DNA of 41,822 nucleotides from a virus (taxonomy: Duplodnaviria; Heunggongvirae; Uroviricota; Caudoviricetes), in IMG/VR virus record IMGVR_UViG_2897346870_000006; one strand, 5' to 3'. The translations under genes were made by a program, and so were the position numbers. Of this stretch, positions 1,381 to 23,025 are shown piece by piece. Under the pieces are notes generated by a model. That model saw only the letters and a program-made list of their open reading frames with translations. It was not told the origin of the DNA and ran no database searches. Positions within the stretch are counted from its first letter, which is position 1. The number at the start of each line of letters is the position of its first letter.

Positions 1381-1662
1381 TCACATCCAGCCACGAAGTT
1401 GATGCTCAACAGCAACCACGTATTCATCGAATATTGACGATTTTTTTGCATCATTAATGATGCGCACGTTTACAAAATATCCGTCTTCCTTAACACATAC
1501 CGGCTCGCCATCTTCGGTAAGTTCTCCGGTTTCTTTGTACACGTTACCTATCACGTCAATAAGAATATCATCCTGCATCGACTCGTCATCATAATAGCCG
1601 GCACTCTCCATAAAGGCCGAAAAGTCGGCCCTGTCGGCAAATTTGAGTGTTAAATCTTTCAT
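1381..1662 (-). CDS. Hypothetical acidic protein (93 aa), tail-fibre associated by position
   Basis: Start codon overlaps the stf stop (TAATG coupling); no family recognised. Confidence 0.45.
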   Translation of the reverse strand: MKDLTLKFADRADFSAFMESAGYYDDESMQDDILIDVIGNVYKETGELTEDGEPVCVKEDGYFVNVRIINDAKKSSIFDEYVVAVEHQLRGWM

Positions 1663-4046
1663 TAGATTGACTCCCCCACCTGAGCATCAGTCAATGCCTT
1701 GTGCCATATTCTGAAATTCCTGACATGACCAAATAAATGACGCAACCCGGCTGTAGTCTGGCCTCCAATACGGATAATTGCGGTGTTCTGAATATAGGAC
1801 CATGTGGCTTTCTTTTCGCTGGATATACGCCCGTTACTTACTGAGCACGTAGACTGCTCTGACTTTACACGCATCCCCATAACCATTTTTTCAAGCGATG
1901 CGTTTTCGTTTACCCGTCTGTTAGCCAAACCTATATCGCAATAAGGAAATCCGTCGTAATCTGTTGAACGACCGAAGCCAAGAATAATAGCCGCTCCGGT
2001 TTGATGACCGCCGGTATCAAAAACACGCGGTGCTGCATTTGGCGTTTTATACCAGTTCTTATGTACCTCACAAAGAACTGTAAAAGGAAGATTATAAAGG
2101 TTATTCTTGATTGGGACTGTCACCATATCGCTTGCGCGAGTGCTTGCAATTATATCAGTTACAATAAATGACGAAGCACTTGATCCACCTTCCACTTGTG
2201 GAGTTGCGATATCCAGATAGTCTCCAGATGCTGTGCCTGAACCTTTTACTGGAGCATATTGAACCATCGCACCAATCATGCTCTCTGTATCTAGTGCATT
2301 AATTGTAGCCTGATAGAAAATCCAACCAGTAGCCTCATCTTTTACAGCCTTTGCAATAATACGATTTGCTGCACCACCAGTCTTATCAATTACAAGTGTT
2401 GATAAATTGAGGTAAGCATCTCCCAAAAAAGTGTAAGTAGAACCATCATGATGTTCAAATCTTAAACGACACCTTATATTTTCAACATCACTTCTGACAC
2501 GGCATGAAATGGTCACATATTTTTCATCACCTGTGACATCAAATCCTTTACTGCCAGAAACCGTTACGATATTAATCGCACTTGTCTGATCAATAAGAGT
2601 ATCTTTTACAGTAAATCTCCCATAAGTAAAATTAAAAGAATCCGTGGATATTTCTGTGAGTTCCAGATTGCCTGACTTATTCCATTTAGATGGATTTGTT
2701 GAATTAAGCAGAAGATTAGTTCTTTGCCCCTCAATAAGCAGGCCATCACGTTCAAATCGCGGCTCGTCAATGGCAGCCTCTGTCAGTACACCAGATTTAT
2801 TAATATAGGTTGCTTTCGATGCGCGTTTAAACTTAACAACCTTGTCACCAGGCATCGTTATTTCGTCGTCGCCAATAACAATCTTTTTATATGATGGCGA
2901 AAAGCCCGTAATCATATCCAGTGAATCGTTAAACGGTATCCACACATCGGGAAGCGGCTGCAAAACTTGTTTATACGGCTCCGCAGCCTGGCTTGCATAC
3001 TCTCTGGCTGCGTCTTCACTTGCTTTTGCAGCCGTCTGGCTTGCAGCGGATGCTTTCGCCGAGTTAGCCGCCGCAGTCTCGCTCGCCTTTGCGTTGGTTT
3101 CACTGGTTTTTGCAGCTTTTTGACTGTTGGCTGATGCAGTGGCAGAAGAAGCCGCCGCACTTGCAGAACCAGCTGCGGCACTCTCGCTTTGGGCTGCAGC
3201 ATCCTGACTGTTTTTCGCCGCAGTTTCACTGGCTTTGGCATTCGTTTCGCTGGTCTTCGCTGCCGTCTGGCTGGACTTTGCGTTAGTTTCACTCGTCTTC
3301 GCAGCTTTCTGGCTGTTAGCCGCAGCAGTTGCTGATCCAGCTGCTGAAGTCGCAGAACCAGCTGCCGCGCTCTCGCTTTGGGCTGCTGCAACCTGGCTGT
3401 TTTTTGCCGCAGTTTCACTGGCTTTGGCATTCGTTTCGCTGGTCTTCGCTGCCGTCTGGCTGGACTTTGCGTTGGTTTCGCTCGTCTTTGCGGCTGTCTC
3501 GCTGTTTTTCGCGTTGGTTTCTGATTTTTTGGCTGCTGTCGCGGAGTTTGCCGATGCAGTCTGTGAGGTCGCTGCCGCCTGTGCGCTGTTAGCTGCATTC
3601 GTTTCTGAGGTTTTCGCCGCGTTCTTCGATGATGCCGCTGCAGTTTCGGATTTCTTTGCCGCCGCTGCGCTCTGAGAGGCGGCTTCGGCGTTGCGTGCCG
3701 CTTCTTCCACCATTTCCTCAAAACGGCGCAATGCCTCCGGCATGACATCATCTTCCGTCATGGCACCGAGAAAATCATTCAGCGTACCTGGTCTGGAACC
3801 TTCATAGACGGTAATGGTCCCGGCATGTGAAGGCGGAAAACCTTCAACCAGCAGGGTGACGCTGTACTGGCCATACTCAACATCCATGCTGTAACGTCCG
3901 GCTTCATCCGGATTTTCAGAAGCCACCGTGTTCACCAGTACCGTGGTGCTGTTACGCTTTGCCTTCAGTTGAATAGTGCAGTTCTGTATTGGTTTTCCCG
4001 CACCATCTTTCAGCACACCTGAGATTTTTACTGCTGCCATATCCAC
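1662..4046 (-). CDS. stf: Side tail fibre protein (Stf-like), 794 aa
   Basis: N-terminus AVKISGVLKDGAGKPIQNCTIQLKAKRNSTT ... EAGRYSMDVEYGQYSV ... FPPSHAGTITVYE matches lambda Stf; long Ala/Ser/Thr-rich repetitive shaft and a divergent C-terminal domain. Confidence 0.85.
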   Translation of the reverse strand: MDMAAVKISGVLKDGAGKPIQNCTIQLKAKRNSTTVLVNTVASENPDEAGRYSMDVEYGQYSVTLLVEGFPPSHAGTITVYEGSRPGTLNDFLGAMTEDDVMPEALRRFEEMVEEAARNAEAASQSAAAAKKSETAAASSKNAAKTSETNAANSAQAAATSQTASANSATAAKKSETNAKNSETAAKTSETNAKSSQTAAKTSETNAKASETAAKNSQVAAAQSESAAAGSATSAAGSATAAANSQKAAKTSETNAKSSQTAAKTSETNAKASETAAKNSQDAAAQSESAAAGSASAAASSATASANSQKAAKTSETNAKASETAAANSAKASAASQTAAKASEDAAREYASQAAEPYKQVLQPLPDVWIPFNDSLDMITGFSPSYKKIVIGDDEITMPGDKVVKFKRASKATYINKSGVLTEAAIDEPRFERDGLLIEGQRTNLLLNSTNPSKWNKSGNLELTEISTDSFNFTYGRFTVKDTLIDQTSAINIVTVSGSKGFDVTGDEKYVTISCRVRSDVENIRCRLRFEHHDGSTYTFLGDAYLNLSTLVIDKTGGAANRIIAKAVKDEATGWIFYQATINALDTESMIGAMVQYAPVKGSGTASGDYLDIATPQVEGGSSASSFIVTDIIASTRASDMVTVPIKNNLYNLPFTVLCEVHKNWYKTPNAAPRVFDTGGHQTGAAIILGFGRSTDYDGFPYCDIGLANRRVNENASLEKMVMGMRVKSEQSTCSVSNGRISSEKKATWSYIQNTAIIRIGGQTTAGLRHLFGHVRNFRIWHKALTDAQVGESI
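3119..3490. repeat. Tandem duplication of about 186 bp (62 codons) inside the stf shaft
   Basis: Near-identical DNA blocks, e.g. ctcgctttgggctgc...gcagtttcactggctttggcattcgtttcgctggtcttcgctgccgtctggctggactttgcgtt occurs at about 3182-3285 and 3370-3472; the protein repeats NSQKAAKTSETNAKSSQTAAKTSETNAKASETAAKNSQ. Confidence 0.75.
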
Positions 4047-4104: not shown

Positions 4105-4704
4105 TCAGAATTTATAACCGACACCCACGATGAAACCGTCAGTGCGCCAGTCACCACTGCCGGAGCCTTCATAAGCAATATCAATGGCCACGGATTCGGT
4201 CGGGTTAAACTGCACGCCAGCCCCCCACGCCAGAGACGTGTTGCTGTGGCGACCGTCATCACTTCCGGTCAGCACATCGTGCGTTTTCCCCTTGCTGTCA
4301 GTTACGCGGAGATAATCCCCGGAAAAAGTCGAAACACGGCTGTAAGCCACACCTGCCATCGCATAAGCACTGAACCATTCATTCACGCGTACAGATGGCC
4401 CCGCCATCATGCTGAACCAGCGGTTACGCACGGAATCTTCATGCCAGCGGGTATCGCTGTAATGCGTTTTTTGCTCATCTTTGGCATTGGCATAACTGAA
4501 TGACGTCACCAGCCCCAGCGTGTCCGTAAATTCATAACGGTATTTCACGTTAATGCCCTTCAGGTCATCACTGCCTGGCATATCAGTATGGGTCTGAAGA
4601 TACCCGGCGCTTAGTGTGGACTGATGCTCTGCTGCGCTCGCTGGCGTACCAGCGGCGACCAGCCAGACTACTGTGGACAGAATAACAGCACATAATTTAC
4701 GCAT
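4105..4704 (-). CDS. lom: Outer-membrane protein Lom (Ail/Lom family)
   Basis: 199 aa, N-terminal signal peptide MRKLCAVILSTVVWLVAAGTPASA, beta-barrel-like composition ending GYKF; located directly after J as in lambda. Confidence 0.9.
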   Translation of the reverse strand: MRKLCAVILSTVVWLVAAGTPASAAEHQSTLSAGYLQTHTDMPGSDDLKGINVKYRYEFTDTLGLVTSFSYANAKDEQKTHYSDTRWHEDSVRNRWFSMMAGPSVRVNEWFSAYAMAGVAYSRVSTFSGDYLRVTDSKGKTHDVLTGSDDGRHSNTSLAWGAGVQFNPTESVAIDIAYEGSGSGDWRTDGFIVGVGYKF

Positions 4705-4771: not shown

Positions 4772-7700
4772 TCAGCTAATCGTGATGCCTGCAGTGGCTT
4801 TCTTCATCACAACAACCAGCAAATCGCTGATACTTGCTGTGGGATACCAGCCATTTACCAGCCATGCTGACACCGAAAACTCCAGTGTCATGTGACCGTG
4901 ACCGGCAGGCATATCAATAACGCCACTGTAAATCAGCGTATTATCCAGCGCGGTACGGTTATAAATTTCAGCACCGTTTTTCCGCACTATCAGACGGCAT
5001 GAGGAGTAAATATCAGTATGCTCTCTCTCATGCTTAGCGCCACTGAATGCCACCGCCGGAATAACAATCTGCCGGTCAAACGGCTGATCGTCATAAATCC
5101 TGACGGTAATGGTCCCTGATGGCCACCGTTCCGGTGCACGGGAGTCCCGGGGGAAAGCTTTGCCCACTGTTTTAACGAGATCGCCCTCAATCTGGTTCGC
5201 GGACAGTTTTCCCAGAACCCGGCAGTTCTCGTTAATCGTGACGTTGTTGAGCGTCCCGGAGTTCGCATTCACGTTACCGCTGATATCGGCATTTTTCGCC
5301 GTCAGCCGCCCGTCCGGTGTCAGGGAAAATGCCGGAGGATTACCGCCGCTGGTAATGGTGGGAGCCGTCAGATATTTCAGGAACACTTCGTTCATGAATA
5401 TCTGATCGCCCTGACCAACAAACATCGGCTTTGTGTTGCCATTCGCAGGATTAACCATCGCAATCCTGTCCGCCGCCAGCAGCACCTGACTCTGCATGCC
5501 GTCAGGGGTGTTCTCAATACCGGCACCAATACCCGCGATATAAAGGCGTCCGTCCTGCATCTGCTGCAGCTTCACAGCCCACATGCTGTTCAGGTTATTA
5601 TTTGTATCAACCTGAACCTTCTGTATCTGCTGAATTGCCGCACTCTGGTCTTCCAGTTTCTTATTGACGGTCTGTGTGATTTCATTGCTGACATCCGTAA
5701 TGGATGTCCTGATTTCAGCCAGGTCAGGCGCAAGCTGACCGTTATCAATCTGCGTCCACAGCTCCTGAGCCAGATGGGTTTTCCCTATCTCGCCTTTGAA
5801 AAAATCCAGATAGCCGGATGCGTCATCACTCGGCTGACCAACAGCCTCCACGAATGCCGATTTGCCAACGGTGTTCACACTGCGAACGTAAAAATAATAA
5901 TTATGGCCCGGCCTGATATTGATACTGGCGGCTATCCAGTACAGCGCCGTGCCAAGATAGCGTGCTGTGGTTTCAACCTGCCTGATATCCGCAATCCGCT
6001 TTTCCGAGAACCAGAACTCAAACTGTACCGTCGGATCATAAACCGCAAGATGCGGCGTGGCGGTTATCTGAAAATAGCCCGGCGTCAGCTCAATCCGCGA
6101 CGGCGCTGCCGGTGCGGCAATCCGGAACGATACCGACGCCGGATCGCCCTGCTGTCCCCACGCATTTACCGCCCGGACTGTCAGCCTGTAGTTTCCCAGC
6201 GCCAGCTGCGTGAAGCGGTATGTGGTTTCCGTCGTCCTGGCCGTGCTGACCAGCCGCTCACTGCCGTCATCCGCTGTCACGGTCAGACGGAGCAGGAAGC
6301 TCACGCCCTTCACCACCTTCGGTGTGTCCCAGCGCGCCAGAACCTGATATTCCCCGCTGTCTGCGGTGACTTCGGCGGTCAGGTGCTGCACCGCTGGCGG
6401 CGTGACACCATTCACCGTGCCGCTCTGGTCGCCGTCAAAGTGCGCCCCGTTATCCACGATGGCCTCTTTTTCCGGTACATGCTGCACGGCGGTGATGGCA
6501 TACGTACCGTCATCGTTCTCACGGATACTCACACAGCGGAACAGGCGCTGGCGCAGCGTCGGCAGCTTCAGCCCCCACACGCTGTATTCGGCAACGCCGT
6601 CAGGAACACGGCTCACTTTCACCTTCACGCCGTCGGTGACGGACTGGACCTCCACGCTGACCGGATTGCCATTTCCGTCAACCAGGCTTATCAGCGTGGT
6701 TCCGGAGGATGGCAGCATGATTTCACGGTCGAGCGTCAGTGTCCGGGTCTGGCTGTTTACCGCAAGCACGCGCCCGCCGACGCTGATACCCGCATAGTCA
6801 TCATCGCAGATTTCAATGACATCGCCCGGTACATGGCGAAGCCCTTCTGCGCCCACGCTGAAGTCCACAGTCTGCGTTTCCAGCAGCTCCGTTTTAATCA
6901 GCCACAGCCCGGCGCGGTGTGCCTGCCCCCGGCTGGTACAGCCAAAGGCATCCATCTTCGTGACGTTACGACCGTAACGGGCAATGGCCTGCGTGTCCTC
7001 CACAAGCTCTGTTGCCGTCTCCCAGCCGTTGTCCGGGTCAATCCAGTTCACCTCAACGGCATTATGGCGGTCCTTCAGGGCGCTGAAGCTGTAGCGGAAC
7101 GGCGCGTCATCATCCGGCATCACCACATTACTGCGGTTATAGGTCCACACCTTATCCGACGGTCGGTCCTGCACGAACGTCAGCGTCTGCCCGTTCCATA
7201 CCGGCATACAGCGCATCGCCGAGCAGAAATCACTGAGCACATCCCACGCCTTTCGCTGTGTGGTCAGGTAGGCATTACAGGTGATGCGCGGCTCCGTGCC
7301 GCCAAAACCGTCCGGCACCGACTGGTCGCAATACTGGCCGATGACATACAGCGCCCATTTGTCCACATCCGCCGCACCAAGACGTTTCCCCATGCCGTAG
7401 CGCGGATGGGTCAGCATATCCCACAGACACCATGCCATATTATTGCTGTATGCCGGTTTAAACGTCCCGTCCCAGATACCGCTGTATTGCCGCGTCTGCG
7501 GGTTATAATTCGACGGCACCTGCAGAATACGCCCGCGCAGATGATAATTACGGCTCACCTGCTGGCTGCCGAACTGCTCCGAGTCCACCTGCACGCCGAC
7601 CAGTGCCGTGTTCGGGTAGCACTGTTTCACATCGATGATTTCAGTGTATGACGACCAGAGCGTTTTGTTCTGCAGCTGGTCTGTGGTGCTGTCCGGCGTC

Positions 7701-8251
7701 ATCCTGCGCATCCGGATGTTGAACGGGCGCGGCGGCAGGTTACCCACCACCACCGAGGCCAGATACTGCGAGGTGGTTTTGCCCTTAATGGTGATGTCTT
7801 TTTCCGTCACCCAGCCACCGTTACGTTGTATCTGAACCAGCAGGCGGACTTCCGACGGATTCCTGTCACCCTTTGAGGTGGTTTCCACCAGTGCCTGTAC
7901 ACCGAAGGTAAAGCGCAGACGGTCGATGTTTGCCGACGTAATGGTGCGGGTGATCGGCGTGTCATATTTCACTTCCGTACCCAGCACCGTCTCGGAGCCG
8001 GAGGATTCAAATCCCTCCGGCGGTGACTGCTCCTGCTCACCTGCCCGGAACACCACCGTGACGCCGGATATATTGGTATTCCCCTCACTGTCCAGCACCG
8101 GCGTACTGTTCAGCAGCACGCTTTTTAATCCATCCACCGGACCTTCAATCGGCCCTTCGCTGATGGCATCAATCACACTCAGCAGCTGCGTGGATTTCAG
8201 GTTGTCCTTCGCTTCGCGCGGGGTATGCCCCTTACTGCTGCCTTTACCCAT
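4772..8251 (-). CDS. J: Tail tip host-specificity protein J (central fibre)
   Basis: 1159-aa ORF in the lambda J position, N-terminus [26 protein letters not shown]. Confidence 0.95.
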
Positions 8252-10298: not shown

Positions 10299-10627
10299 CA
10301 GTTCACCACCTGTTCAAACTCTGCGCTGAACTCAACACGCAGCATACTGACCCGCGACGACCATTTTGCGCAGGTCACCTTTATCTGCCGCCACTCATAA
10401 GGCGGCGTCCACAGAAAGGCTTTCCAGCCCCCGTGCTCTTCCAGAAACGACTCCAGTACCGTGGCCTCCCAACGGGGGACAGAAAGCGTCACGCTGTACG
10501 TTTTCAGGTTGGCATTCAGCCCGGCAGGCGCTCGCTGGGAATAGCCATCACCAAAGCGCACCTTTCTTACAGAAGGGGCCGAAGCCACATCCATACCGGG
10601 TTTCACTTTCCAGCGGAAGGTTTTCAT
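10298..10627 (-). CDS. M: Tail tip protein M
   Basis: 109 aa, MKTFRWKVKPGMDVASAPSVRKVRFGDGYSQRAPAGLNANLKTYSV... Confidence 0.9.
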   Translation of the reverse strand: MKTFRWKVKPGMDVASAPSVRKVRFGDGYSQRAPAGLNANLKTYSVTLSVPRWEATVLESFLEEHGGWKAFLWTPPYEWRQIKVTCAKWSSRVSMLRVEFSAEFEQVVN

Positions 10628-13185
10628 CGTCCACCTCCGGAGAACAGGCCACCATCACGCATCTGTGTCTGAATTTCATCACGGGCACCCTTGCGGGCCA
10701 TGTCATACACCGCCTTCAGAGCAGCCGGACCTATCTGCCCGTTCGTGCCGTCGTTGTTAATCACCACATGGTTATTCTGCTCAAACGTCCCGGACGCCTG
10801 CGACCGGCTGTCAGCCAGACTGCCCGGTGTACCGACATAACCACCGGTGGCATAGCCGCGCATCAGCCGGTAGAGATTCCCCACGCCAATCCGGCTGGTT
10901 GCCTCCTTAGTGAAGACAAATTCACCACGGTGAACAATCCCCGCTGGCTCATATTTGCCGCCGGTTCCCGTAAACCCTCCGGTCGCAAAATGGAATTTCG
11001 CCGCAGCTGCCTGAATGGCTGTACCGCCTGACGCGGATGCGCCGCCACCAACAGCCCCGCCAATGGCGCTGCCGATACTCCCGACAATCCCCACCATTGC
11101 CTGCTTAAGCAGAATTTCTGTCATCATGGACAGCACGGAGCGGGTGAAGCTGCGCCAGTTCTGTTCACTGCCGGTCAGCATCGCCGCCATATTCTGCGCA
11201 ATACCATCAAAGGTCTGCGTGGCTGCACTTTTAACCTGTGACATACTGTCCGTGGCGCTCTCTTCCCACTCACTCCAGCCGGACTTCAGGCCTGCCATCC
11301 AGCTCCCGCGAAGCTGGTCTTCAGCCGCCCAGGTCTTTTTCTGCTCTGACATGACGTTATTCAGCGCCAGAGGATTATCGCCATACTGTTCCTTCAGGCG
11401 CTGTTCCGTGGCTTCCCACGCTGCCTGCCGGTCAGTCAGCCCCCGGTTTTTCGCATCAATGGCTGCCCGTTTTGCCCGTTGCTGCTGTGCGAATTTATCC
11501 GCCTGCTGCGCCAGCGCATTCAGGTGCTCCTGATACGTAACCTTGTCACCAAGTGCAGCCAGCTGGCGTTTGTACTCCAGCGTCTCGTCTTTATGCGCCA
11601 GCAGGGATTTCTCCTGTGCGGACAGCTGGCGACGTTGTGCCGCCTCCTCCAGTACCGCGAACTGACTTTCTGCCTTCCACAAATCCCGGCGCTGCTGGCT
11701 GATTTTCTCATTCGCTCCGGCATGCTTCTCCAGCGTCCGGAGTTCTGCCTGAAGCGTCAGCAGGGCCGCATGAGCACTGTCTTCCTGACGATCGCCCGCA
11801 GACACCTTCACGCCGGACTGTTTCGGCTTTTTCAGCGTCGCTTCATAGTCCTTTTTCGCCGCCGCCATCAGCGTGTTGTAATCTGCCTGCAGAATTTTCC
11901 CGTCCTTCAGTGCCTTGTTCAGTTCTTCCTGACGGGCGGTATATTTCTCCAGCGGCGTCTGCAGCCGTTCGTAAGCCTTCTGCGCCTCTTCGGTATATTT
12001 CAGCCGTGACGCTTCGGTATCGCTCTGCTGCTGCGCATTTTTGTCCTGTTGACTCTGCTGTTCAGCCTTCTTTCGGGCGGCTTCAAGCGCAAGACGGGCC
12101 TTTTTACGATCATCCCAGTAACGCGCCCGCGCTTCATCGTTAACAAAATAATCATCCTTGCGCAGATTCCAGATGTCGTCCGCTTTCTTAAACGCAGCCT
12201 CTGCCTTAATCAGCATCTCCTGAGCGGTATCAGGACGACCAATATCCAGCACCGCATCCCACATGGATTTGAATGCTCGTGCTGTCCTGTCTGCCCAGGT
12301 CTCCAGCGTGCCCATGTTCTCTTTCAGGCGTCGGGTCTGGTCATCAAACCCTTTCGTTGCGGCCTCGTTCGCCGCCTGCAATGCCCCGGCTTCATCGCCG
12401 GAACGCTGCAACTGAGCAACATACGCAATCTGCTCCGCCGTCACGTTACGGAACTGGCGTGCCATCGCCGTCAGTCCCGACGTCGGGTCTGTGGTCAGCT
12501 TCCCGAAGGCTTCAGCGACCTTGTCCACCTCCACGCCGGATGCAGAGGAGAAACGCGCCACACTCTGGCTGATCGCCTCAAACTGCTCACCACCACGCAC
12601 ACCGGCATTCACCAGCGCCGTCAGTGACTCGCTGGTCTGGTTAAACGTCAGCCCTGCCGCCTGCCCGGCTCTGGACAGGACCAGCATACGATCTGCCGTC
12701 AGTCCCGCCTGATTGCCGGAAAGGACCAGCGTTTTGTTGAAATCGGACAGGGTTGAGTTGCCCTGATACCAGGCATACGCCAGCGCACCGGTCGCCACCG
12801 CCAGCGAGGTGGCCCCCACCATCGGCAGGGTGATCGCGCCGGCAAGCCCCCTGAACATGGGGATCATCCCGCCGAAGGAGTCCTTCACCTGACCACCCTG
12901 TTGCAGCAGGATCAGCCACGGGCTTTGCCCGCCTGCAAGCTGCGTGGCCACGTCGGTGAACTGTGCAGGCAGCATACGCATGGCGGCTTTATACTGCCCG
13001 ACGGAAATCCCCGCTTTCTGTGCAGCCAGTGCCTGTCGGCTCAGCGACTGTTCAACGACTGCCGCTGTTTTTTTCGCATCACTTTCCGTACCGGAAAAAT
13101 GACGCCTGACTCTGGCCATCTGCTCGTCAAATCTGGCCGCATCCAGACTTAAATCAACGACCAGATCGCCTACCGGTTCAGCCAT
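10624..13185 (-). CDS. H: Tail tape measure protein H
   Basis: 853 aa, MAEPVGDLVVDLSLDAARFDEQMARVRRHFSG..., long coiled-coil centre and glycine-rich C-terminus. Confidence 0.95.
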   Translation of the reverse strand: MAEPVGDLVVDLSLDAARFDEQMARVRRHFSGTESDAKKTAAVVEQSLSRQALAAQKAGISVGQYKAAMRMLPAQFTDVATQLAGGQSPWLILLQQGGQVKDSFGGMIPMFRGLAGAITLPMVGATSLAVATGALAYAWYQGNSTLSDFNKTLVLSGNQAGLTADRMLVLSRAGQAAGLTFNQTSESLTALVNAGVRGGEQFEAISQSVARFSSASGVEVDKVAEAFGKLTTDPTSGLTAMARQFRNVTAEQIAYVAQLQRSGDEAGALQAANEAATKGFDDQTRRLKENMGTLETWADRTARAFKSMWDAVLDIGRPDTAQEMLIKAEAAFKKADDIWNLRKDDYFVNDEARARYWDDRKKARLALEAARKKAEQQSQQDKNAQQQSDTEASRLKYTEEAQKAYERLQTPLEKYTARQEELNKALKDGKILQADYNTLMAAAKKDYEATLKKPKQSGVKVSAGDRQEDSAHAALLTLQAELRTLEKHAGANEKISQQRRDLWKAESQFAVLEEAAQRRQLSAQEKSLLAHKDETLEYKRQLAALGDKVTYQEHLNALAQQADKFAQQQRAKRAAIDAKNRGLTDRQAAWEATEQRLKEQYGDNPLALNNVMSEQKKTWAAEDQLRGSWMAGLKSGWSEWEESATDSMSQVKSAATQTFDGIAQNMAAMLTGSEQNWRSFTRSVLSMMTEILLKQAMVGIVGSIGSAIGGAVGGGASASGGTAIQAAAAKFHFATGGFTGTGGKYEPAGIVHRGEFVFTKEATSRIGVGNLYRLMRGYATGGYVGTPGSLADSRSQASGTFEQNNHVVINNDGTNGQIGPAALKAVYDMARKGARDEIQTQMRDGGLFSGGGR

Positions 13186-19318: not shown

Positions 19319-22999
<3,681 letters not shown>

Positions 23000-23025
<26 letters not shown>

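Follow-up and report, generated by a model that had tools for sequence, protein, structure and literature searches.

A nine-heptad tandem repeat, probably an old in-frame duplication, in the stalk of a lambda-Stf-type prophage side tail fibre

The stretch of DNA analysed here, referred to below as the window, is the whole 41,822-nucleotide (nt) sequence of IMG/VR record IMGVR_UViG_2897346870_000006, from a virus of the Caudoviricetes. Near its left end the minus strand carries a side tail fibre gene (1662..4040), and the shaft of the encoded fibre contains a tandem repeat with a unit of 189 nt, or nine heptads; this repeat is the subject of the present report. The open reading frame (ORF) list and its translation give a protein of 792 amino acids (aa) starting at an ATG at 4040; the ORF can be extended to a GTG at 4046. 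The protein matches PHROG 1419 ('tail protein', a 793-position profile) from end to end, and a 99.8%-identical copy is annotated in RefSeq as 'prophage tail fiber N-terminal domain-containing protein' (e.g. WP_077251782.1). The fibre of the window is the same protein as the members of this family, with no difference of substance.

The fibre is anchored to the tail by an N-terminal collar domain (3756..4040, minus strand; aa 1-95). Pfam places PF08400 at aa 5-134 (E 7e-67), and aa 3-95 are identical at 82 of 93 positions (~88%; E 8e-49) to the solved N-domain of Ur-lambda gpStf (PDB 9e7m/9mgh). Lambda orf-401 is 58% identical to the fibre across aa 3-344; the similarity stops at aa 344. The protein can be classed on this homology as a side tail fibre of the lambda Stf type (PF08400 family), with membership resting on its N-terminal half and a distal half that is mosaic. 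A preliminary description of the locus, prepared from the letters of the window, had also called it a side tail fibre gene, and the collar identity, PF08400 and orf-401 all agree with that assignment.

The shaft contains an unbroken array of 33 heptads (3006..3698, minus strand; aa 115-345) with the consensus K-x-S-E-T-A/N-A. Serine occupies position 3 in 32 of the 33 heptads and alanine occupies position 7 in 30 of them; there are no insertions or deletions in the window allele. This is the same register as in lambda orf-401, where serine is also at position 3 and alanine at position 7. The array has the canonical heptad periodicity of a coiled coil, with conserved core positions. The core residues are small and not hydrophobic, which has likewise been noted for the PCoil region of related fibres. 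Alanine, serine and threonine together make up 64% of the shaft, as the preliminary description implied when it called the shaft Ala/Ser/Thr-rich. No curated fibre-repeat family covers the heptads in Pfam, which returns only PF08400 and a sub-threshold CarboxypepD_reg match. NCBIfam matches to the shaft (DnaX, SMC and others) lie far under their cut-offs and were rejected as low-complexity noise.

Superimposed on the heptads is a longer period. Tandem Repeats Finder reports a period of 189 nt with 2.3 copies and 85% matches at 3069-3506, with periods of 21 and 42 nt nested inside it; a second repeat search returns two 189-nt copies at 84% identity. The preliminary description placed a repeat of two 62-codon units, with a period of 186 nt, at 3119-3490. 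A tandem repeat is indeed present there, but its period is 189 nt and the gene lies on the minus strand. Measured from 3119, identity is 85.7% at an offset of 189 nt and 30% at 186 nt; the 186-nt period is therefore rejected, and the unit is 63 codons, not 62. Unit 1 (3300..3488, minus strand) encodes aa 185-247 and unit 2 (3111..3299, minus strand) encodes aa 248-310. They are followed by a partial third copy of two heptads (3069..3110, minus strand; aa 311-324), in which 34 of 42 nt are identical to the start of either unit. In total there are approximately 2.2 copies of the 63-codon unit in the interval 3069-3506.

Each full unit reads KTSETNA KSSQTAA KTSETNA KASETAA KNSQxAA AQSESAA AGSAxxA AxSATAx ANSQKAA. 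The two units share 164 of 189 nt (86.8%) and 58 of 63 aa (92%). Codon differences comprise 16 synonymous and 5 non-synonymous changes, and the Nei-Gojobori method gives a synonymous divergence (dS) of 0.62, a non-synonymous divergence (dN) of 0.043 and a dN/dS of 0.07. Both copies have been kept under purifying selection since the duplication. Identity is unevenly spread, at about 92% over the first five heptads and 75% over heptads 6-9. No exact repeat is longer than 68 nt (3217..3284, equal to 3406-3473), and this stretch is the likeliest site for an unequal crossover.

The whole shaft has a 21-nt period, and its self-identity is 43-49% at multiples of 21 nt. On this account the likeness of the units could be a coincidence of a low-complexity array, requiring no particular duplication event. 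The 189-nt offset stands out from this background, however, with 60% self-identity over the shaft. When the order of the heptads was shuffled 2000 times, the best adjacent pair of nine-heptad blocks never exceeded 70.9% identity, against 86.8% observed; the repeat is thus genuine, and low complexity does not account for it. An array of the same kind in lambda Stf shows no peak at this spacing: its identity at an offset of 63 aa is 0.30, which is background, compared with 0.63 in the window protein. The units are adjacent, head to tail and in frame, and are more alike than the array background. Chance resemblance is accordingly given a negligible likelihood.

The age of the duplication was examined with eight two-unit alleles: that of the window, five from E. 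coli chromosomes, and those of phages 2G7b (Nesevirus) and ev207 (Jouyvirus). Unit 1 of one allele is 93-100% identical to unit 1 of another (mean 97%), and the mean for unit 2 against unit 2 is 96%, whereas unit 1 and unit 2 of the same allele are 83-87% identical. Units at the same position in different alleles are thus closer than the two units of one allele, and the duplication therefore predates the divergence of these alleles. Sixteen sites carry inter-unit differences that are fixed in all eight. Unit 1 and unit 2 are equally similar whether both come from one allele or from different alleles (identity 0.921 either way for heptads 1-5; 0.753 versus 0.752 for the last four heptads). There is thus no sign, across the eight alleles, of concerted evolution or gene conversion between the units. 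A class of 31-heptad alleles, whose downstream module is different, has the duplication too.

The duplication arose before this allele family spread. The preliminary description had regarded it as recent and its units as near-identical, which would imply that a single-unit parent was duplicated shortly before sampling. A recent event would suit the strong similarity of the first five heptads, the 68-nt exact repeat of the window allele and the existence of one-unit alleles. It is contradicted by 25 differences in 189 nt, a dS of 0.62, 16 differences fixed across chromosomes and two phage genera, and the greater similarity of same-position units; the equality of inter-unit identity within and between alleles also argues against it. 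A recent origin is very improbable, and neither 'recent' nor 'near-identical' can be retained. The comparison with related stf alleles that the preliminary description had proposed shows a real repeat, common to the eight alleles, which is older than their divergence.

The two-unit form is widespread. All 30 complete E. coli records listed at 99% identity or more contain the 2385-nt two-unit gene, co-linear from end to end; their sources span numerous countries and hosts. The fibre gene is present to at least 80% of its length in 176 genomes, and the shaft, to the same extent, in 967 of the 5426 complete E. coli genomes. The isolated phages 2G7b and ev207 carry the two-unit form as well. This form is the norm of the family: a prophage fibre gene that is common in E. 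coli normally has two units.

This distribution bears on whether the second copy is a product of assembly, as would be the case if the true gene had one unit and the assembler had made a false copy; the preliminary description regarded the repeat as a hotspot for assembly errors in short-read data. Many database homologues do end at contig ends, but no support for an artefact was found. A false copy would be identical to its template and would not diverge mainly at synonymous sites; misassembly cannot produce such copies. The repeat is present in independent assemblies, including the complete-genome records and the isolated phages. All of the 120 closest protein clusters listed are 412-630 aa long and so extend beyond the end of the repeat at aa 324; 60 of them carry both shaft anchor sequences, and all 60 read through the shaft. 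The exact repeat is only 68 nt long. An artefact has practically no probability, and the repeat is not a site of assembly error in these data; it is an ordinary feature of a known and catalogued protein family, which gives no reason to distrust the assembly.

Several observations on related assemblies and annotations can be added. Most of the 120 closest clusters (found with query aa 1-360) are contig-end fragments labelled partial. In short-read assemblies the breaks tend to fall within the distal half of the fibre gene, away from the 189-nt repeat; they are likely to reflect the recurrence of related fibre genes within a genome (median 2 places, up to 13). The annotation of some complete genomes, namely those of E. 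coli EFF60 (L013) and 2020N21-110-15 (L006), shows the fibre gene in pieces or as a pseudogene, with the breaks lying in the shaft; the EFF60 array has 29 heptads, one of them a KNSQ/KAA fusion.

Shaft length varies among relatives. Sixty cluster representatives contain both anchor sequences, and in 45 of them the shaft is as long as in the window allele. It is 63 aa (one unit) shorter in seven, 14 aa shorter in two and 28 aa shorter in one; single representatives are shorter by 4, 5, 12, 30 or 41 aa. Complete genomes also hold a 32-heptad and a 29-heptad allele, and the stalk lengths among the sampled alleles are 24, 29, 31, 32 and 33 heptads. The isolated phage IdasGreatGrand has a one-unit allele, as do the complete genomes of AVS0655, CB209 and MSB1_4I. 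At the 16 diagnostic sites, where each base can be scored as unit-1 or unit-2 type, IdasGreatGrand reads 1122222222222222 and the three genomes read 1222222222222222. All four are polar chimeras with the head of unit 1 and the tail of unit 2, and they switch in two different intervals; in three of the four, the switch falls within the head region of high identity. Over heptads 1-5 the IdasGreatGrand allele agrees with unit 1 of the two-unit allele L007 at 104 of 105 nt; over heptads 7-9 it agrees with unit 2. This order is the signature of an unequal crossover that deletes one unit. The repeat had been described beforehand as a hotspot for recombination, and the two crossover intervals of the one-unit chimeras agree with its being a substrate for it.

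A separate pattern is seen in P0048 and P0049. These represent one class of 33-heptad alleles, which has unit-2-type tails (A[SG]SASAA A[TA]SATAS ANSQRAA) in both units, with a strongly diverged first unit. The pattern suggests that the same array had a different recombination history in this class.

The structure of the stalk can be approached through the relatives of the fibre. In Ur-lambda, twelve Stf chains form a collar on the tail; residues 1-91 make up the collar, residues 92-101 are a linker, and the published model assigns residues 102-393 to the proximal coiled coil of a trimeric fibre (Yu et al. 2025, PMC12617516). There are four side fibres, which are longer than the central fibre and are probably the first to contact the cell (PMC12617516). 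The predicted alpha-helical stalk of the window fibre, which would be the equivalent of this proximal coiled coil, spans 2970..3746 on the minus strand (aa 99-357). A single-sequence AlphaFold2 model of aa 1-420 has helices at aa 99-226 and 235-357, with a pLDDT mostly between 70 and 89. By analogy with these relatives, we infer that the stalk is a parallel trimeric alpha-helical coiled coil. At approximately 0.148 nm per residue, one 63-aa unit would account for about 9.3 nm of a ~37-nm stalk. The preliminary description held that the extra unit lengthens the shaft, and this view is supported by coiled-coil geometry together with what is recorded for Ur-lambda (PMC12617516) and for PCoil (PMC3368898). 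Among solved structures, only the collar domain of lambda Stf corresponds to the fibre; no solved stalk was found, and the remaining structure matches are marginal and of low complexity.

Taken together, the data are best explained by an old, in-frame tandem duplication of nine heptads (63 aa, 189 nt) in the Ala/Ser/Thr-rich stalk of a lambda-Stf-type side tail fibre that belongs to a lambda-like E. coli prophage, to which explanation we assign a probability of about 85%. Three stalk chains would form a parallel alpha-helical coiled coil linking the tail collar to the distal receptor-binding part. The duplication would add 63 residues to each chain, or about 9.3 nm of rod, giving a helical stalk of 36 heptads (~37 nm) instead of 27 (~28 nm). 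DNA that is periodic at both 21 and 189 nt would permit misaligned homologous recombination, and this may now and then delete one unit or a few heptads, mostly whole heptads, to yield a family of stalk-length alleles.

Several points weigh against this reading. The AlphaFold2 monomer folds back on itself as a hairpin at aa 227-234. The hairpin is probably a modelling artefact; it is treated as such because the AlphaFold3 model of full-length Ur-lambda Stf also folds back, contrary to the cryo-electron tomography of the same authors (PMC12617516). Length does not always change by whole heptads: the rule holds in 55 of the 60 representatives and fails in five, and the 4-aa deletion is found on seven contigs. 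A strict whole-heptad rule was thus discarded as only mostly true. A synthetic three-unit allele was used to query the 5426 complete E. coli genomes; all 25 top matches were two-unit forms and none reached 99% identity. With no three-unit allele in the top matches, contraction alone is documented, and not expansion. Finally, three of the four one-unit alleles have a single unit-1-type site and could be surviving forms from before the duplication.

This last point can be developed into an alternative in which the one-unit form is ancestral and unit-2-like, the one-unit alleles of the genomes are survivors, and the locus is not a site of recurrent recombination. Consistent with it, the one-unit alleles L010, L011 and L012 match unit 2 at 15 of the 16 diagnostic sites. 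All four one-unit alleles, however, have the unit-1 base at the first diagnostic site, and their protein variants each match a different two-unit allele. The passage of IdasGreatGrand from a near-perfect copy of L007 unit 1 into unit 2 is likewise not what a survivor would show, and the 32-, 31- and 29-heptad alleles indicate that other internal deletions do happen. Survival of an ancestral one-unit form is therefore unlikely, though it retains some weight. An old duplication with later loss of units remains the preferred explanation.

A further question is whether the change in length is itself selected. Unit gain and loss could act as an adaptive switch, similar to a contingency locus, in which the reach of the fibre (in steps of ~9 nm) is fitted to the thickness of the O-antigen or capsule. 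The discrete ~9 nm length polymorphism with recurrent crossover products fits this idea, as does the finding that Ur-lambda side fibres reach the cell ahead of the central fibre (PMC12617516). If it is true, the 189-nt repeat is a built-in recombinational length switch. On the other hand, the two-unit form dominates, three-unit alleles are missing from the top matches, and rearrangement is expected to be slow when the units are 87% identical with an exact core of 68 nt. An adaptive switch is for these reasons distinctly improbable. Under the preferred reading of an old duplication, stalk length may still have some effect on adsorption, which we infer.

The one-unit phage IdasGreatGrand and the two-unit phages 2G7b and ev207 form a natural pair for asking whether the length of the side fibre affects adsorption. 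The question also bears on the engineered lambda-Stf chimeras used for phage delivery; the junctions of the length alleles mark the places where in-register cuts are tolerated. Otherwise, the analysis settles the size, strand and age of the repeat and has little import beyond annotation.

Variation in rod length by block duplication or deletion has counterparts elsewhere. In adenovirus fibre shaft repeats and in the blocks of streptococcal M-proteins, misaligned recombination duplicates or deletes blocks and so alters the length of a rod without disturbing its terminal domains. Both are unrelated to the window fibre; the adenovirus shaft is a beta-spiral and not a coiled coil, and repeat variation in M-protein is tied to immune escape.

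The closest described system is Ur-lambda gpStf (lambda orf-401/orf-314; PDB 9e7m and 9mgh; Yu et al. 2025, PMC12617516). Its gene occupies the same position after J and lom, and the two fibres share the ~88%-identical collar domain, 58% identity over aa 3-344 and the same Ala/Ser heptad register. They differ in that the gpStf shaft does not contain the 63-aa super-repeat. Beyond the shaft, the window fibre has no match to the distal part of lambda Stf, nor is it accompanied by a Tfa-type assembly gene; instead, it has a domain of the 'head spike fiber' type and is followed by genes for a 93-aa protein and for a second fibre protein that has an S74 chaperone domain.

In EPclA and EPclB, collagen-like prophage tail fibres of E. 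coli O157:H7, the PfN-PCoil region likewise has PF08400 with an Ala/Ser-rich heptad region after it (Ghosh et al. 2012, PMC3368898). Beyond this region the two proteins have a collagen triple helix and a PfC domain, which the window fibre lacks. PCoil lengths were noted in 2012 to vary between proteins by multiples of seven residues, so that length variation in heptad multiples has been known in the coiled coil of this family since then; the available part of that account says nothing of a duplicated nine-heptad block (PMC3368898). A marginal, low-complexity match (E 9e-4) links aa 230-272 to residues 130-172 of DpK2, the depolymerase of Klebsiella phage RAD2 (PDB 7LZJ, PMC8552709). The unmodelled residues before 191 in DpK2 include an 'N-terminal triple helical bundle' which is seen in the map (PMC8552709). 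That segment has no atomic-level model, and the rest of DpK2 is a beta-helix depolymerase.

The C-terminal part of the fibre (1665..2969, minus strand; aa 358-792) is the presumed receptor-binding region. It has an NCBIfam 'phage head spike fiber' domain at aa 435-636 and a match to PHROG 5939 at aa 368-790. At the DNA level, the distal half matches tail fibre genes of unrelated lytic phages of E. coli and Salmonella (genomes of ~50 kb and ~108 kb), with identities of 74-93%; what lambda-like phages have in common with the fibre gene is limited to its first ~1350 nt. The distal half (1665-2969) is a mosaic.

Two genes lie downstream of the fibre gene on the minus strand. The first (1381-1662) encodes the 93-aa protein, which belongs to PHROG 1361 (unknown function). 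The second (331-1371) encodes a 346-aa second fibre protein with the Peptidase_S74 chaperone domain PF13884 at aa 227-278, and matches PHROG 4563 ('tail fiber protein'). A Tfa-type assembly gene was sought here; neither downstream protein matches a tail-fibre-assembly family in Pfam, NCBIfam or PHROG. The presence of an S74-domain second fibre protein together with the 93-aa protein suggests, from domain content, a two-protein or branched side fibre.

Upstream, the fibre gene is directly preceded by lom (4105..4704, minus strand), which encodes an Ail/Lom outer membrane protein (PF06316, E 8e-127; the annotation agrees), and by the central tail fibre gene J (4772..8251, minus strand), a 1159-aa ORF annotated as gpJ in a 99.8%-identical locus. 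The order J, lom, fibre, all on the minus strand, is the same in the annotated locus L001 and in lambda.

Several long ORFs of 65-146 aa lie antisense to the shaft on the plus strand (3089-3675). Lambda has an annotated antisense 'orf206b' in the same region of orf-401. The antisense ORFs of the window are most likely stop-free by-products of the Ala/Ser/Thr codon repeat and not genes.

The remainder of the window (8000-41822) has the gene order and gene sizes of a lambda-like prophage. Large minus-strand ORFs are found at 10624-13185 (853 aa) and 21100-23025 (641 aa), with others between these two and further along; the last ORF of the window, at 40659-41822, is on the plus strand. In strain LR-60, which has a 99.8%-identical locus, the genes annotated upstream of the fibre gene are those for the tape measure, minor tail protein L, a C40 peptidase, a tail assembly protein and J; zinT adjoins the prophage at its fibre end.

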